Part shown: positions 21,683 through 28,882 of the stretch, piece by piece
Numbering within the stretch: the stretch's first letter is position 1
Layout of the letters: each line of letters begins with the position of its first letter
From: Escherichia phage slur02
Direction: 5' to 3' (one strand)
Sequence record: NC_028927.1
Length of the DNA: 64,000 nucleotides
Position numbers and translations under genes: made by a program
Notes under the pieces: generated by a model
The model's input: the letters and a program-made list of their open reading frames with translations, nothing else
Database searches by the model: none
What the model was told of the DNA's origin: nothing

Positions 21683-22647
21683 TGTATTCTTTAGAGGAAT
21701 TTAATAATCAAGCAATAAACGCAGATTTCCAACGTAATAATATGTTTAGCTGCGTTTTTGCGACAACTCCATCAACTAAAAGCTCTTCGTTGATAAGTTC
21801 AATTAGCAACTTTTCTTATAATAACTTGGGCCTAAATTCAGATTGGCTAGGATTAACTCAAGGTGATATTAATCAGGGAATTACCACGCTAATTACAGCT
21901 GGCACACAAAAACTGATAAGAAAATCAGGGGTTAGTAAATATCTTATTGGTGCCATGAGTCAACGTACAGTTCAAAGTTTATTGGGCTCATTTACAGTTG
22001 GTACATATTTAATTGACTTCTTTAACATGGCATATAACTCATCTGGATTGATGATATACTCTGTAAAAATGCCAGAGAATAGATTATCCTATGAAACTGA
22101 TTGGAACTATAATTCTCCTAATATTCGTATAACTGGGAGAGAATTAGACCCTTTGGTTATTTCATTTAGAATGGATTCAGAAGCTTGTAACTATCGTGCA
22201 ATGCAAGACTGGGTTAACTCCGTTCAAGACCCAGTAACTGGACTGCGTGCTTTGCCACAAGATGTCGAGGCAGATATTCAGGTTAATCTTCATTCTCGTA
22301 ATGGATTGCCTCATACTGCGGTGATGTTCACCGGATGCATTCCAATATCAGTGAGCGCTCCTGAGTTATCATATGATGGAGATAACCAAATAACTACATT
22401 TGATGTTACTTTTGCGTACAGAGTGATGCAGGCTGGAGCAGTTGATAGGCAAGCTGCGCTTGAATGGCTTGAATCTGCTGCTATAAATGGTATTCAAAGC
22501 GTTCTCGGAAATAGTGGAGGTGTTACTGGACTATCTAATTCGCTTTCACGACTCAGTAGATTAGGAGGAACTGCAGGAAGCATTTCAAACATTAATACTA
22601 TGACAGGAATTGTCAATTCGCAAAGTAAAATATTAGGAGCAATATAA
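21682..22647 (+). CDS. 54: baseplate-tail tube initiator gp54
   Basis: 321 aa; terminator hairpin downstream. Confidence 0.9.
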   Translation: MYSLEEFNNQAINADFQRNNMFSCVFATTPSTKSSSLISSISNFSYNNLGLNSDWLGLTQGDINQGITTLITAGTQKLIRKSGVSKYLIGAMSQRTVQSLLGSFTVGTYLIDFFNMAYNSSGLMIYSVKMPENRLSYETDWNYNSPNIRITGRELDPLVISFRMDSEACNYRAMQDWVNSVQDPVTGLRALPQDVEADIQVNLHSRNGLPHTAVMFTGCIPISVSAPELSYDGDNQITTFDVTFAYRVMQAGAVDRQAALEWLESAAINGIQSVLGNSGGVTGLSNSLSRLSRLGGTAGSISNINTMTGIVNSQSKILGAI

Positions 22648-22651
22648 CAAT

Positions 22652-22677
22652 GGGGACCGAAAGGTCCCCATATTTTT
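22652..22677 (+). terminator. terminator after gene 54
   Basis: GGGGACC-GAAA-GGUCCCC hairpin followed by a U-run. Confidence 0.7.
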
Positions 22678-22966
22678 ATTTACGGAATGAAATGAAAGCA
22701 GAAACTGAAGCAACTAAACTGTCTTCAATATAAACTTCAATTTTTACCGGAGCTTCTGACTCAAATTTACCTGTTACTACACCTTGGAAAATGCTTTCAG
22801 TCTGTTCTGGTTTTGAAAAATTTTCAGAAGGAAAAATTCCGAACTTTTTATCTGTTCCAAAAATTTTAATAAATTCATCGTAAACTGCTTCATTAAAAGC
22901 ATTATCAGCAGGAATAACGCCTTCAACTACAAGTTCTTGACCTAAAAAGCGCAAAGAAGATTTCAT
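22676..22966 (-). CDS. hypothetical protein (alt.-3-like position)
   Basis: 96 aa ORF with SD GAGGA and an early-type promoter upstream. Confidence 0.6.
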   Translation of the reverse strand: MKSSLRFLGQELVVEGVIPADNAFNEAVYDEFIKIFGTDKKFGIFPSENFSKPEQTESIFQGVVTGKFESEAPVKIEVYIEDSLVASVSAFISFRK

Positions 22967-22997
22967 TTTGTGTTCCTCATGTTATGTCAGTAAGACT

Positions 22998-23027
22998 ACT
23001 ATAACACAACATGAGGAACTTGTAAAC
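22998..23027 (-). promoter_or_regulatory. early sigma70-type promoter (-35 GTTTAC, 18-nt spacer, extended -10 TGTTATAGT)
   Basis: Read on the minus strand; -35 overlaps the stop of the alt-like paralog; leader carries GAGGA before the ATG at 22966. Confidence 0.5.
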
Positions 23028-25084
23028 TACATTTTGAACTTTTTAGACATTCCGTTAATGTTAACCAAAGAAGCTAAGATTTGAGAAACTTCGTTTTCCT
23101 CTTCTTTTGATTCTTCTACAAGGAATTGATTAAATCCAGCCATTGGACGAACTTCACCAGTTTCCATTAAATGGTCGCCATCATATACTGATTCTTCTAA
23201 TTGTTCAGAAGGAGGAACGATTGTACCTTCGATTAGATACTTGTTATAAGCAGTTTCTTTCATAAAGTACGTACTTACTTTATTAATCTTCAGTAAAATT
23301 CCACGCGGTAGAATAACTTCAGCTTCTGATGGAAATCCTGTTAAATGACCTGGAACGATAACTTTGATTCGCTCAGCTCCTTTAATTACCATACCCACGC
23401 TAGTTTCAGCATTTTCATTAGCGTATGTAGAATGACTACCCATATGCATCAAATCTTCTGCATCAACAGAACCTTCTCCTTCGCCAGAAAATACTGCGCC
23501 GGAATCATCTAGAGCCATATAGTTTTTACCATGCTCACCGAAGATATTTGGTTTAAGCGATGTAGATACGAAGTTCTTGAAATAGAACATTTTGTTTTCA
23601 ATGTTATGACGCAAAGTTTTAAAGGTAACTTCTTGTCCACGATAAAGCGTAGTTCCTGGAGGAAGAACTGAACCTTTAGCGAATGCAGAATCTAACGTCT
23701 CGATGTGCTTAATAGCTCGTTCCATATATTCTTCACGGGTAGAATCTGGTTTACCCAAAAGGAACGAGTTCATTTCAACATATGAATCTGCACAATAATC
23801 TTCAATTACATCAGATTCAGCTTGAGTTAATCCTTTTGGAGTTACTTCAGTACTTGCATATTCATATGCCTGGGCAGCAGATTCATTAATCAATTTATAA
23901 ATGCCATTCATGACAAATTGAATAATAGCTGTCTTTTCATCTGGCGTGGCTTTAGAACCTTTAACCAAATCATTGATAATTTTCTTAATAACATCAAAGC
24001 TATTAGAAATATTAATATCAGCAAGATCACTTAAAATTTTATCAGTTTTATAATCAAAGAATTCTTTATTCTTTAAATATTCTTGAGAACCTTGATATGT
24101 TATATCGCTCTGCAACTTGATGGATGGATCACGTAAACGTGCATGGGCTAATGCAATATGATTTCGGAAGTTTTCTAGTTCATAATCGCTAGATTTAAAA
24201 CGAGAAGCACTCCTCATACCACCGATAGCTCCTTTGCTGAAGTTTGAACCAATCTGAATAACGCCAGAGTTCATTGGTCCTTCTGCTTTATATACCGGAA
24301 CTTTAGATTCAAACTCTTGATATTTCTTGGCAGCGAAGCTATCACCCTGAAGTGAAGCATCAACAGTAGAATATTGAGCTTGTGCTGCTAATCGACGACT
24401 AATTTTAGTTTTCTGAATAACAGCTTGGTCAGTACGTTTATCATTTTCTAAAGCAATAGAAGCAGCAACAGCGACAGCTTTAGGAACAGCATTACCTGTT
24501 TTAACGTCTACATAAACATCACCAACCTTTGATTCAACTTTTGTGAATAACTCAGTTGAAATAGGAGGTACGCCTGGAATGTCTTCTAAATTGGCATTTT
24601 TACGGTAAACCATAATATATGCATACTTTTTATCATAGTCCCAGATTTCCTTTAAAAGAACATATCGACCTGCTCCTTTAGTACGTACTAAACGGTCAGC
24701 AATAACTTGCATTTGACGAGCAGCGCCATTTGTTTTACTCTTTAGTACGCGGAATAGGCATGCGTCGATTTTATACTGCTTCATTGTTTGAAGAGCAGTA
24801 TCAAAAACAGCACTAATGACGCCAATTGGATTTCCACCCAAGTTTCTAAGCTTAACCAGCGATAATTTCTCGTTGACACCTATCATTACGATATGCATCA
24901 TTTTATCGCCCGGCTTAACGTTTTTATTCGTATCACCGCCAGAGGTGTATGTACAAAATCTAAATCCAGGAAGCACGCTTTCTTCGCCGGCTTGAATAGC
25001 AAAAATTTGTGGTATTTTATGCTTAGGATTTAAGTTAACAACCGGCGCCGAAGCGCCGTCAAATAATTCTGTAATAAGTTCCAT
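23027..25084 (-). CDS. Alt-like ADP-ribosyltransferase paralog (685 aa)
   Basis: N-terminal 230 aa closely similar to the adjacent alt ORF; C-terminal half has R / S-T-S / E-x-E ADP-ribosyltransferase motifs (YRGQ, FVSTSL, SEAEVILP). Confidence 0.85.
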   Translation of the reverse strand: MELITELFDGASAPVVNLNPKHKIPQIFAIQAGEESVLPGFRFCTYTSGGDTNKNVKPGDKMMHIVMIGVNEKLSLVKLRNLGGNPIGVISAVFDTALQTMKQYKIDACLFRVLKSKTNGAARQMQVIADRLVRTKGAGRYVLLKEIWDYDKKYAYIMVYRKNANLEDIPGVPPISTELFTKVESKVGDVYVDVKTGNAVPKAVAVAASIALENDKRTDQAVIQKTKISRRLAAQAQYSTVDASLQGDSFAAKKYQEFESKVPVYKAEGPMNSGVIQIGSNFSKGAIGGMRSASRFKSSDYELENFRNHIALAHARLRDPSIKLQSDITYQGSQEYLKNKEFFDYKTDKILSDLADINISNSFDVIKKIINDLVKGSKATPDEKTAIIQFVMNGIYKLINESAAQAYEYASTEVTPKGLTQAESDVIEDYCADSYVEMNSFLLGKPDSTREEYMERAIKHIETLDSAFAKGSVLPPGTTLYRGQEVTFKTLRHNIENKMFYFKNFVSTSLKPNIFGEHGKNYMALDDSGAVFSGEGEGSVDAEDLMHMGSHSTYANENAETSVGMVIKGAERIKVIVPGHLTGFPSEAEVILPRGILLKINKVSTYFMKETAYNKYLIEGTIVPPSEQLEESVYDGDHLMETGEVRPMAGFNQFLVEESKEEENEVSQILASLVNINGMSKKFKM

Positions 25085-25087
25085 GAT

Positions 25088-27184
25088 TTATCCTTGAACG
25101 AACTTGTAAGGCATGTTTGTAATATCTATGCAAGACGCAATAATTCCAAGAGATGATTCTACTTTCTGTTTAACATTTGATGAAACAAATGATGCAAAGT
25201 CAACTCTGTCTTCTACTTCAATATCACCTGTCATTGCAACTACTTCGCCGGTTTCCATTAGATGGTCACCGTCATAAATTACCGATTCGGTGAGTTCTTC
25301 TGTGGTCATAACTTCAGCTTGAATAAGTTTTGTATTATTAGATGTTGTTCCGTCATTATTAGAAGCATCAGTTATTTTATTAACTTTAACCATCAATCCG
25401 CGCGGTAGAATAACTTCAGCTTCTGTTGCTATTCCGAGACTTCCTGGATATACAACATTAACTTTATGAGCTCCATCAATTGCCCATCCTATTTGAACTT
25501 TAACGTATTCAGGATTTTCTTTATACGCTCTTATTTCGTTTGGATTAATAGTTATTCCTTCTTCATTTTTATCAACTGTTAATTCATTGCGAGCTTCTGG
25601 TTCTAAAAGACCAATACCAGCATGTGTAATTCCAAAACGTCCAAAAATGATAGGAGTTAAAGAAGTAGATACAAAATTTCTGAAATAGAACACTTTATTT
25701 TTAACTAGCGCTTCGTATATAGGAGCAGTCATACTTTGAGCACGATAAACTGTAATGCCTTCCGGTATGCGGTCACCATTTTCAAAAGCTGAATCTAAAT
25801 TATTTATAGCAGATTCAATTTCTTTTTCACTCATTACATCATATCGTTCTGGATTGTAACGACCTAAAAGAAGATTATTGATGTCAGTATATCCTGAACC
25901 ACAATACTCTCTAATGCCGCGCTTTTGTGATGGAGTATATTTAGAACCATCACGGGCAATAGTAATATCAATCATTGGACCTGCACCAATTCCAGAAAAA
26001 CTATAAATCATTCTTTTGAGGAATTTAGTTTTTGCTGCGTTCCAGGAATTTTTAGTTATTTCTTCCCAGACTTCATCTGGTTGTCCTTTACGATTTTTAT
26101 TATGATTAGCAAGCCATTTATCTTTATAATCTTCAAAGAATTGATTTACAGCTGCTGCGTATTTCTCTAAACATTTTATTGAAGTAGTTGGTTCATTTTT
26201 AATTGCATTAAAAATTACTTCTTTAATTTTTTCTGAAACTTCACCGACTTGACTCATTGGAAAGAATTTATAATCATAGTGAAGTTCATCTGCCGTTCCT
26301 TCAGCAATAATTTTTGCTGCCTTAGTTTTAGAAGCTAATGAATTAATTCCAAGCTTCATTTCTTCTGCTTCGGGAATTAAAGGAGCGGTAGCAGGTTTAT
26401 TGAAATTAGCTGCGGTAGATTCATACTTCTGGAATAATTCACTTTCAAATCTAGAAGATTCCAATGACTGACTTTGCGCAATTGCTCTACGTGAAATTTT
26501 AACTTTAACGATTACAGCTTGGTCAGAACGTTTATCATTTTCTTGCGCAATAGATGCTGCAATTGCCTCATTTTTAGTTACTTGAGCTCCAGTATCTTTA
26601 TTGATATAAACATCACCGACCTTCGATTCAACTTTAGTAAAGAGCTCGGTACTAATTTCCGGAACCCCTGGAATGTCTTCTAGTGATACATTTTTGCGAT
26701 GTATAAGAATATATGCATACTTTTTATCGTAATCCCAGAGTTCCTTAAGAAGGACGTATCTGCCACCTGAACGACTACGGATAAGTCTATCAGCAATAAC
26801 TTGAATTTGTCGAGCTTGACCAGCGGTTTTAGACTTAAGAATACGGAGCATACAAGCATCAATTTTATATTGACGCATTGTTTGCATTGCAACAGTAAAA
26901 ACTGAATTGATATAATTAATTGGGCTTGGACCAAGACCTTTCAATTTAGCAATTGAACCTTTAGCAGTTAATGTAAAAGGAACAATATGCATCATTTTAT
27001 CGCCCATTTTTAAATCGCGATTAGTATCACCTCCAGATGTATAGGTACATAAACGAAAGCCTGGTTGTTCAATTGCATCATCAACATGAACTGAAAAAAT
27101 TTGTGGTATTTTCTTCTTTGGGTTTAAGTTTGTAATCGGAAGAGTAGTATCTTCGTCAAATAATTCTGTAATGAGTTCCATCAT
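25088..27184 (-). CDS. alt: Alt, capsid-packaged ADP-ribosyltransferase (698 aa)
   Basis: Alt-type N-terminus MELITELFDEDTTLP...; ADP-ribosyltransferase motifs YRAQ, FVSTSL, EAEVILP; adjacent to gene 30 as in T4. Confidence 0.85.
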   Translation of the reverse strand: MMELITELFDEDTTLPITNLNPKKKIPQIFSVHVDDAIEQPGFRLCTYTSGGDTNRDLKMGDKMMHIVPFTLTAKGSIAKLKGLGPSPINYINSVFTVAMQTMRQYKIDACMLRILKSKTAGQARQIQVIADRLIRSRSGGRYVLLKELWDYDKKYAYILIHRKNVSLEDIPGVPEISTELFTKVESKVGDVYINKDTGAQVTKNEAIAASIAQENDKRSDQAVIVKVKISRRAIAQSQSLESSRFESELFQKYESTAANFNKPATAPLIPEAEEMKLGINSLASKTKAAKIIAEGTADELHYDYKFFPMSQVGEVSEKIKEVIFNAIKNEPTTSIKCLEKYAAAVNQFFEDYKDKWLANHNKNRKGQPDEVWEEITKNSWNAAKTKFLKRMIYSFSGIGAGPMIDITIARDGSKYTPSQKRGIREYCGSGYTDINNLLLGRYNPERYDVMSEKEIESAINNLDSAFENGDRIPEGITVYRAQSMTAPIYEALVKNKVFYFRNFVSTSLTPIIFGRFGITHAGIGLLEPEARNELTVDKNEEGITINPNEIRAYKENPEYVKVQIGWAIDGAHKVNVVYPGSLGIATEAEVILPRGLMVKVNKITDASNNDGTTSNNTKLIQAEVMTTEELTESVIYDGDHLMETGEVVAMTGDIEVEDRVDFASFVSSNVKQKVESSLGIIASCIDITNMPYKFVQG

Positions 27185-27215
27185 ATCCTCTCTAGTGTTT
27201 ATTCTATTTATAAAA

Positions 27216-27233
27216 TTAAAGGCCCGAAGGCCT
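27216..27233 (-). terminator. terminator between the small ORF after gene 30 and alt
   Basis: AGGCC-UUCG-GGCCU hairpin followed by a U-rich tract on the minus strand. Confidence 0.5.
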
Positions 27234-27422
27234 TTAATAATCTATTGGTAAGAGAGTACGATATATTTCAAACTTTGGACCTTTTTCATAAGCATCAAAA
27301 GTTTCTGTGAATTTATTATAAGCATATGCATCTATAAATTCAATCATGATTTGTGATACAGAAGTAGAAACATCTCCACCTTCTTTTTGAGCCACGACAA
27401 TTGTTTCTAAGTAAGCTTTCAT
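27234..27422 (-). CDS. hypothetical small protein
   Basis: 62 aa ORF overlapping gene 30 stop; terminator hairpin downstream. Confidence 0.5.
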   Translation of the reverse strand: MKAYLETIVVAQKEGGDVSTSVSQIMIEFIDAYAYNKFTETFDAYEKGPKFEIYRTLLPIDY

Positions 27423-28882
27423 AAACCAGTTACCTCATGAAAATCACCAAATACATCTTCGAATGTATTAGCTTTAGTTTTATCTTCACGTAAACGAATC
27501 GCAATCGGAAGAAATAATTTAACGTAATCAGTGCGGCCATCAGATTTTAACCAACCGTTGCATTCGCACTCTAGAATTTTTCCAATATAATAATTTTGGT
27601 TTTCCATAATGCGAGTACGGTCAAGTTCATGCGATTTTACACCGGCTTTATCTTTTAAGCCTGAACCAGCATTTACTTTAATTTTTCCACACTCTGACTC
27701 AAGAATAAATCCACCTGCTTTAGTAGGGTCTTTACGGTGAGGATAAATTCCTACAATTTTTAAATCAACATCAATTACTTCTTTAAATTTATAGAGATTT
27801 TTTGAACGAGCATTTTCCCATAATCCATCGATATTTTTGAGAATAATACCTTCAAGACCTTGGTCAATATACTTTTTATAAATTACCTTAGCTTCATCTA
27901 GGTTATTTACTACTTGGTTTTCAATTAAAATTACTTTATCATATCCTGATGTCATTTGTTCTAATTTAGAAAAACGTACATCATATTTTAAACGAAATGC
28001 TGGAAGACCGTATATTTCTACCAACGGAACATAATCCCAGACCTGAAACTTCATGCATTGAGCTTCTTTTTCTGAAATAGTTCCCTTTAAAGATTTATTA
28101 GCGATTCCATTAGAAGTAGTACGTGATTCAGCTACTTCAGCAAACTCTTTAGCTTTACTAATTTCAGGATAAGCATCAAAAAGAAAATCTAGGCCTTCTG
28201 GCTCCTTTTTAACTTGCTCATGGTATACCAATTCGCCATCAATTAACACGCCTTCTGGATGAATCTGGCGGGCTTCAGCGGTCATTTTGATTAATTCTTC
28301 CTTAAGAAGATCTAATCCTAGATACTCATTACCGGCTCGTGATAAAAGACGAACATCATCTAATTCATCACCTCTGACTTCGGCAAAGCACCGAGCCCCA
28401 TCAGCTTTTAACTGGGCAAAGGCTGGAAATTTGATATTCTTATTAATGCCTTTTTCATCATAAGAACTTGCCAGCATTTGAGGTTGTTCAGGAATTAAAC
28501 CTGGCCAAACTTTGTTTGCAATAGATACTGAAGCACCACATTCAAGGTCTCGCATCATCACTCGACGCAAAACTTCAACATCATCTTTTTTACCATCGGT
28601 GATATATCCAGATAATTCCTCAATTGCCGCATTTCCGGTCAATTTCCGAGTAGCTAACGTGAATTCAATGAAGTCAAGCATATCGGTAAGAGTCAACATT
28701 CCAAAACTCTGGGTAGCAATACCAGATTTAGGCCATTTCTTGATATAATACTGCAACCCACGAGAATAAGTCAGACGATATACTCGTTTAAGCAATTCAT
28801 TATCTTTATTCTTTTCAAGAATTGCTTGCTTCTGCTTAGTTGAACCAATAGATGCTATTTCGTTCAGAATTTTAAGAATCAT
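27419..28882 (-). CDS. 30: ATP-dependent DNA ligase gp30
   Basis: 487 aa; adenylation motif KADGAR; T4 length. Confidence 0.95.
   Translation of the reverse strand: MILKILNEIASIGSTKQKQAILEKNKDNELLKRVYRLTYSRGLQYYIKKWPKSGIATQSFGMLTLTDMLDFIEFTLATRKLTGNAAIEELSGYITDGKKDDVEVLRRVMMRDLECGASVSIANKVWPGLIPEQPQMLASSYDEKGINKNIKFPAFAQLKADGARCFAEVRGDELDDVRLLSRAGNEYLGLDLLKEELIKMTAEARQIHPEGVLIDGELVYHEQVKKEPEGLDFLFDAYPEISKAKEFAEVAESRTTSNGIANKSLKGTISEKEAQCMKFQVWDYVPLVEIYGLPAFRLKYDVRFSKLEQMTSGYDKVILIENQVVNNLDEAKVIYKKYIDQGLEGIILKNIDGLWENARSKNLYKFKEVIDVDLKIVGIYPHRKDPTKAGGFILESECGKIKVNAGSGLKDKAGVKSHELDRTRIMENQNYYIGKILECECNGWLKSDGRTDYVKLFLPIAIRLREDKTKANTFEDVFGDFHEVTGL

Follow-up and report, generated by a model that had tools for sequence, protein, structure and literature searches.

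The stretch of DNA analysed here, referred to as the window, comprises 64,000 nucleotides (nt) of Escherichia phage slur02 (sequence record NC_028927.1) and carries two tandem genes for ADP-ribosyltransferases (ARTs) of the Alt type. On the open reading frame (ORF) scan they appear as back-to-back minus-strand ORFs at 25088-27184 (698 amino acids (aa) from the first ATG) and 23027-25084 (685 aa), separated by 3 nt. The first corresponds to alt (25088-27181, minus strand), the ortholog of T4 alt with a product of 697 aa, and the second is a full-length paralog of it, called alt.-2 according to the nomenclature of phage RB32 (23027-25084, minus strand, 685 aa). The initial annotation of this DNA had described the same pair of adjacent ORFs, which is borne out here except for the upstream start. 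Indeed, two adjacent in-frame ATGs are observed at the alt start (27179-27184, minus strand), and both the ORF finder and the initial annotation had taken the first one, at 27184. A GAGG Shine-Dalgarno sequence at 27187-27190 lies 2 nt from this first ATG and 5 nt from the second (27181). Given this spacing and the N-terminus of T4 Alt, the second ATG is likely to be the start codon of alt; translation from it would yield 697 aa, as in the RefSeq annotation, with the N-terminus MELITE as in T4 Alt.

Pairwise BLASTP of Alt against Alt.-2 gives 42% identity from end to end (E = 7e-159), and the identity of each region was read from a three-way alignment of Alt, Alt.-2 and T4 Alt. Over residues 1-238 the two window proteins share 159 of 237 positions (~ 67%), and this conserved N-terminal module is encoded at 24371-25084 in alt.-2 and at 26468-27181 in alt, both on the minus strand. 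At about residue 240 the similarity drops, the identity being ~ 20% over residues ~ 240-420, which amounts to no real similarity, and 35-55% in the ART domain, while a C-terminal motif, YDGDHLMETGEV, is kept in both proteins. This profile agrees with the initial annotation, in which an N-terminal part of about 230 aa was said to be similar and the C-terminal half divergent, and it locates the point of change. Compared to T4 Alt over the full length, window Alt shows 71% and Alt.-2 41% identity. The Pfam model PF26846 (Tevenvirinae_ADPRT) most likely corresponds to the N-terminal module; this assignment comes from the records of homologs and not from scoring of the window proteins, the model being listed for homologs of 98% identity and missing from those truncated at the N-terminus.

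The catalytic signature R / S-T-S / E-x-E, which had been noticed in both halves at first inspection, is complete in both proteins. In Alt it is formed by R480 (in VYRAQ; codon 25742-25744), S505-T-S507 (25661-25669) and E587-A-E589 (25415-25423), and in Alt.-2 by R482 (in LYRGQ; 23639-23641), S507-T-S509 (23558-23566) and E587-A-E589 (23318-23326), all on the minus strand. In an alignment of 21 family members the catalytic arginine, both serines and both glutamates are invariant and the threonine is nearly so; furthermore, the arginine and the E-x-E of the Alts align with the corresponding residues of CDTa/iota-like toxins and with the QxE of a C3-like toxin. The Pfam ART model PF03496 (ADPrib_exo_Tox), for which the curated gathering score is 23.4 bits, matches Alt with 129.8 bits (E = 1e-37) and Alt.-2 with 70.6 bits (E = 1.5e-19), and the family phrog_802 'Alt-like RNA polymerase ADP-ribosyltransferase' covers residues 1-696 of Alt (E = 4e-273) and 1-685 of Alt.-2 (E = 8e-255). 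NCBIfam holds no model for either protein. At the level of sequence, the match of both proteins to the ART family is thus far beyond chance. In this family an E-x-E signature, as opposed to Q-x-E, predicts specificity for arginine, and on account of their E-x-E both Alt and Alt.-2 are predicted to be arginine-specific. Judged by these features, the product of each gene is an intact mono-ADP-ribosyltransferase of the arginine type (R-S-ExE), with a fold of the C3/VIP2/iota class.

The AlphaFold2 model of Alt.-2 (mean predicted local distance difference test (pLDDT) 78, predicted template modelling score (pTM) 0.70) displays an N-terminal alpha/beta part at residues ~ 12-225, a helical region at ~ 230-470 and an ART core at ~ 480-625. 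Alt and Alt.-2 share this build, which is modelled here on Alt.-2 and consists of a Tevenvirinae-specific alpha/beta domain of ~ 230 aa, a helical middle, an ART core and a low-confidence tail. On Foldseek searches of the Protein Data Bank (PDB) the top matches to Alt.-2 are Vis, Certhrax, C3bot, CDTa, iota Ia and VIP2, with a probability of 1.00, E-values from 2e-7 to 1e-4 and, for the single-domain toxins, target-normalised TM-scores of 0.6-0.68. A search for solved structures by sequence gave no match to Alt.-2 at E ≤ 0.01, and for Alt weak matches of the ART domain to CDTa/iota. Residues 630-685 of the Alt.-2 model have a pLDDT below 50, which fits a flexible propeptide.

The pair is flanked by conserved neighbours, namely alt.1 upstream (27234-27422, minus strand, 62 aa, Pfam Phage_blade) and alt.-3 downstream (22676-22966, minus strand, 96 aa, DUF5498), and gene 30, the DNA ligase gene (487 aa), is found on the alt.1 side. 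The gene order 48, 54, alt.-3, alt.-2, alt, alt.1, 30 of the window is identical in T4 and RB32. Between gene 30/alt.1 and alt.-3/gene 54, both paralogs are present at the same position in T2, RB32, RB18 and RB33, and T6 holds the alt.-2 segment at 97.9% identity. The initial annotation could not say whether this tandem arrangement had been described in reference T-even genomes and had named its presence there as the finding that would make it known; since these genomes carry both paralogs at the same place, the pair is counted as known. Indeed, region 22600-27500 of the window is 100% identical to that of Escherichia phages slur04, slur11 and slur13 and 97.5-97.7% identical at the nucleotide level to T2, RB32, RB33 and RB18, and in 343 of the 538 matching phage records a single piece spans at least 80% of the 4.9-kb locus, the two-copy state being the commoner one in the genus Tequatrovirus. 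The gene pair has been annotated since the deposition of RB32 (DQ904452) and is not a new kind of system: the RB32 record uses the names alt and alt.-2 (YP_803136), the latter with the remark 'similar to alt', and in the RefSeq record of slur04 both genes are named 'Alt-like RNA polymerase ADP-ribosyltransferase'. Moreover, Nolan et al. 2006 (PMC1524935) listed paralogs that adjoin alt in T4, in RB49 and in 44RR, the last of which has a full-length duplicate.

Within this distribution T4 is the exception, as only a small part of the second copy is left in it and the catalytic domain is gone entirely. The T4 genes alt.-1 and alt.-2 (NP_049810, NP_049809), which the T4 annotation traces to an ancient duplication of the initial part of alt, correspond to the first 364 nt of window alt.-2 at ~ 95% nucleotide identity. 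In this T4 stump a 1-nt deletion (window position 24925) causes a frameshift and is followed by a deletion of 1,699 bp, which ends 20 nt before the shared stop codon and which, on alignment with T4, corresponds to 23047-24745 (minus strand) of the window. The same 1,699-bp segment is found at 90% identity or more in 400 phage records, among them T6, RB3, AR1 and wV7. The PHROG families of these T4 fragments, 23015 and 15247, match Alt.-2 with E = 2e-40 and 1e-36, compared to 1e-21 and 2e-19 for Alt.

Since T4 shows that the second copy can be lost, one of the two window copies could likewise be an inactive pseudo-enzyme on its way to loss. The state of the window genes strongly disfavours this possibility, which we regard as very improbable. 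The alt.-2 ORF is intact and its catalytic residues are all present; the loss of such residues, which the initial annotation had named as the mark of a degenerate duplicate, is seen in neither copy on alignment. Furthermore, Alt.-2 scores 70.6 bits on PF03496 against the cut-off of 23.4, and its ART fold is predicted with confidence. The ratio of non-synonymous to synonymous substitution rates (dN/dS) of alt.-2 is 0.04 against RB32 (33 synonymous and 5 non-synonymous differences) and 0.03-0.06 against phages ECML-134 and PST, and the C-terminal 446 aa of Alt.-2 are at least 95% identical in 400 records. These values indicate that alt.-2 is under strong purifying selection, and the persistence of the segment missing from T4 in 400 phage records speaks likewise against a decaying gene.

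The catalytic part of the locus is itself variable among phages. Aligned with T4 alt (locus stretch L001, 4455-6503), window alt is 94-99% identical over nt 1-720, ~ 50% over nt ~ 810-1440 and 90-100% from nt ~ 1980 on; at the protein level, residues 1-246 are ~ 99%, the central 350 aa ~ 47% and the C-terminal 90 aa ~ 95% identical. The boundaries of this mosaic are sharp, at nucleotide 720 and around 1900, and its centre comprises the helical region and most of the ART core, and it looks as if the conserved flanks had been kept and the catalytic cassette in the centre exchanged. The central cassette of window Alt is of the T2 type and is found at 95% identity or more in 308 records, the T4 type being the other common allele. 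The combinations vary as well: Yersinia phage fPS-65 carries a T4-type Alt together with Alt.-2, and some of the homologs found with Alt.-2 carry an Alt-type N-terminus.

Single-copy hybrids, in which an Alt N-terminal part is joined to an Alt.-2 C-terminal part, are found between alt.1 and alt.-3 in the metagenome contigs P0005 and P0003 and in the complete genomes of ECML-134, vB_EcoM_SCS4 and Yersinia phage PST. In the locus stretches that were aligned, the hybrid genes lie at 1652-3712 of L008 (ECML-134, NC_025449), 1652-3712 of L009 (PST, NC_027404), 5001-7055 of L006 and 5001-7061 of L007. At the sites that distinguish Alt from Alt.-2 each of them switches type once and cleanly, at alignment columns 148-159, 99-103, 175-193 and 44-55 respectively, and they look like the products of independent unequal crossovers within the conserved 5' module of the tandem paralogs. 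The longest exact run common to the two 5' modules is 21 nt. The metagenome hybrids were also considered as assembly chimeras, and this was rejected, as the same architecture is present in the complete isolate genomes of ECML-134, SCS4 and PST; a shared run of 21 nt is, in addition, shorter than typical assembly k-mers.

Copy number varies too. Dhakavirus AnYang (NC_055782; locus stretch L004, 5266-11526) contains three tandem Alt-like genes of 694, 681 and 707 aa between alt.1 and alt.-3, which extends the range across Tevenvirinae to one to three copies, and CLB_P2 has two Alt-like genes at the alt locus. From these alignments, the alt locus behaves as a small recombining array of catalytic cassettes, a behaviour that would extend the known plasticity of T4-like genomes and that was not found stated in the searchable papers.

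Regarding expression, a T4-type late promoter box, TATAAATA, is found at 27205-27212 (minus strand), at a distance of 17 nt upstream from the start codon of alt; across the window the late promoter box is matched 18 times, compared to 8.8 expected. The box comes directly after a GC-rich hairpin, AAAGGCCTTCGGGCCTTT, read from the sequence at 27218-27235 (minus strand), which overlaps the alt.1 stop codon and is followed by a T-rich sequence. This hairpin would separate the gene 30/alt.1 transcript from the late alt transcript. The coding strand between alt and alt.-2 shows no terminator-like hairpin; the next one is found beyond alt.-3, where a bidirectional terminator-like hairpin with a 9-bp stem including 6 GC pairs (22650-22671) stands between the convergent genes 54 and alt.-3 and likely forms the 3' end of the alt operon transcript. 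The gap of 3 nt and the lack of a coding-strand terminator-like hairpin point to co-transcription of alt and alt.-2, and we infer that one late transcript probably covers alt and alt.-2, possibly with alt.-3, from the box upstream of alt. The ribosome-binding site of alt.-2, AAGGA, sits within the last codons of alt.

Two further promoter-like sequences were observed at the locus. A second exact TATAAATA lies at 25801-25808 (minus strand) in the variable part of alt and could be due to chance or be an internal late promoter. It was also considered as a promoter dedicated to alt.-2, from the start of which it is 717 nt away. A match to sigma-70 or T4-early-like promoters (TTTACA, 17 nt, TG-TATAGT; 10 of 12 positions) is found at 22998-23026 (minus strand), beginning right after the alt.-2 stop codon and just upstream of alt.-3, and is kept in T4 across the deletion junction. 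In view of this match, alt.-3 may also be expressed alone.

In T4, the prohead core takes up ~ 40 copies of Alt, which leave the head together with the DNA on ejection (PMC9026906), and the protease gp21 cuts off 6 residues at the N-terminus (after ITE-6) and 63 at the C-terminus (after LTE-619), leaving a protein of 68.2 kDa (PMC5694885). The mass of mature T4 Alt calculated here is likewise 68.2 kDa, equal to the published value. In the window proteins gp21 motifs are found at aligned positions, ITE-6 (27164-27172) and LTE-632 (25286-25294) in Alt and ITE-6 (25067-25075) and LEE-631 (23192-23200) in Alt.-2, all on the minus strand, and cleavage at these motifs would give mature proteins with predicted masses of 70.1 kDa and 69.2 kDa respectively. 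The shared N-terminal 230 aa had initially been taken for the capsid-targeting and processing part of Alt. While their similarity is clear, the role was over-stated, as gp21 trimming of T4 Alt has been shown for the 6 N-terminal and 63 C-terminal residues only (PMC5694885).

Alternatively, Alt.-2 might not be packaged at all and either act late in the cell that produces it or have a structural or scaffold role in the prohead, a view with which the lack of direct evidence for Alt.-2 packaging in the literature searches is in keeping. Nevertheless, the N-terminal propeptide MELITE of Alt.-2 is identical to that of Alt, an L-x-E is found in its C-terminal part at the position that aligns with the site in Alt, the motif in the C-terminal tail is kept and the N-terminal domain is 67% identical to that of Alt. 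The late promoter context also matches that of other head proteins, and the sole Alt at the locus of ECML-134 and PST combines the N-terminus of Alt with the catalytic half of Alt.-2. Altogether, a non-packaged Alt.-2 is quite unlikely, although less so than a degenerate copy.

The target-recognition loops of C3-like ARTs are located after the STS and just before the (E/Q)-x-E. The parts in which Alt and Alt.-2 diverge include the helical middle, the long stretch from STS to E-x-E and the residues just before the E-x-E, which read GIATEAE in Alt and GFPSEAE in Alt.-2, compared to APSNEME in T4 Alt. Different target sets for Alt and Alt.-2 are the most economical reading, since the two proteins differ in the helical region and in the segments around the catalytic residues, and two injected effectors with different targets, as had been proposed for this pair, are plausible. 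The gp21 motifs of both proteins, the one late promoter upstream of the pair and the purifying selection on alt.-2 also speak for this proposal. Host targets, namely RNA polymerase alpha and other host proteins, are known for T4 Alt only (Depping 2005, cited in PMC9026906 and PMC9503650). In vivo, T4 Alt restores plating on a strain with Mokosh type I, and the sequence-divergent Alt of the close relative Bas37 does not (bioRxiv 10.1101/2025.11.20.689424). This result, which is used here only for the difference between alleles, indicates that Alt alleles are not interchangeable in vivo and supports the proposal indirectly.

The two genes could also be redundant, Alt.-2 modifying essentially the same host proteins as Alt (e.g. 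RNA polymerase alpha at Arg265) and serving for dose or as a back-up. Architecture, arginine-type E-x-E catalytic signature and processing motifs are indeed common to both, and the single-copy hybrids ECML-134 and PST, which possess only the Alt.-2 catalytic half, are viable phages, from which it follows that either catalytic half suffices at the alt locus. On the other hand, identity between the catalytic halves reaches only 35-55% and the helical regions are unrelated, and Alt alleles much closer to each other already differ in function. Moreover, each catalytic half shows 95% identity or more in hundreds of genomes and is under strong purifying selection, and this strong conservation of two divergent halves fits two separate constraints. 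We therefore hold redundancy to be unlikely, if somewhat less so than a non-packaged Alt.-2.

Hence, the best explanation, and one that we consider probable, is that the window carries two known Tequatrovirus Alt paralogs, of which Alt.-2 is a second head-packaged and injected arginine-specific ART with targets different from those of Alt. According to this explanation, alt and alt.-2 would be made late from the TATAAATA promoter upstream of alt, with alt.-2 translated from its own AAGGA ribosome-binding site. Both enzymes would then be built into the prohead core and trimmed by gp21 after ITE-6 and after the aligned L-x-E to ~ 70 and ~ 69 kDa, and, once ejected with the DNA, would ADP-ribosylate different sets of host proteins on arginine. 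In addition, the shared 5' module serves as a substrate of recombination between the paralogs, through which the locus gains, loses and swaps catalytic cassettes.

Several observations weigh against this explanation. No late promoter box is found near the alt.-2 start, the only other TATAAATA being 717 nt upstream within alt; expression of alt.-2 would consequently depend on read-through. T4 does well although it lacks alt.-2, and in the laboratory alt itself can be dispensed with (PMC9026906); any function of alt.-2 is conditional. The predicted fold of the N-terminal domain has no convincing relative in the PDB and gives no clue to its function. Finally, searches of the literature on Alt.-2 function, on virion proteomics in which two Alts are detected and on studies of Alt specific to T2 returned only Nolan 2006 and general reviews on Alt, and the searchable literature yields no experiment on Alt.-2, whose packaging, cleavage, activity and targets we infer.

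In a broader and more tentative proposal, which we regard as possible but rather short of probable, the alt locus of Tevenvirinae is a recombination-driven array of injected effectors. The conserved 5' module and the 3' propeptide would flank interchangeable cassettes (T4-type, T2-type, Alt.-2-type and more in Dhakavirus), and unequal or homologous crossover in these flanks would give rise to one-, two- and three-copy states and to hybrids. Each cassette would have its own host or defence target, and Alt.-2, as the second injected ART, might for example be a counter-defence enzyme.

As a discovery the pair adds little, having been annotated before and with duplications in print since 2006 (PMC1524935). 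Its relevance lies elsewhere: what experiments have taught about injected phage ARTs comes almost entirely from T4, a phage that lost an enzyme kept under strong purifying selection by T2, T6 and ~ 400 sequenced relatives. Given the Mokosh type I result (bioRxiv 10.1101/2025.11.20.689424), in which one Alt allele helps T4 to evade this defence and another does not, the question of what Alt.-2 modifies is tractable and bears on phage-host conflict and on host range in phage therapy.

Among known systems, the closest is alt.-2 of RB32 (YP_803136) together with the unnamed second gene of T2, RB18 and RB33, which is the same gene at the same position; the RB32 gene differs from the window copy by few substitutions (5 of them non-synonymous) and in nothing of substance. 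The T4 genes alt.-1 and alt.-2 are broken and without a catalytic domain, whereas window alt.-2 is intact. T4 Alt (NP_049811) shares with window Alt the alt.1/gene 30 neighbours, the ITE-6 and LTE motifs and the R/STS/ExE residues and differs from it in the central cassette, which is T2-type in the window. In 44RR (ORF187c/188c) and RB49 (ORF183c) Alt-like paralogs adjoin alt as they do here, the 44RR copy being described as a duplicate of full length that is only 54% similar (Nolan et al. 2006, PMC1524935). However, the duplications of 44RR, RB49 and AnYang belong to other genera and involve other cassettes, and the Dhakavirus relative of Alt.-2 is ~ 52% identical to it.

A precedent in the same phage group is given by T4 ModA and ModB, which are adjacent paralogous R-S-E ARTs with diverged specificities (PMC10468400, PMC9503650). 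They differ from the Alts in that they are of ~ 200 aa, early and not packaged and are without the N-terminal Tevenvirinae_ADPRT module and the gp21 propeptides. Beyond phages, C3 exoenzyme, Vis and the iota Ia / CDTa / VIP2 toxins have the ART fold and the R / STS / (E/Q)xE site in common with the Alts at a sequence identity of 15-19%. The Alts differ from these bacterial toxins in that their N-terminal and helical regions are phage-specific and in that a long insert of variable sequence separates STS from ExE, and Alt is delivered by ejection from the phage head, whereas the toxins are delivered by secretion or by a binary B-component.

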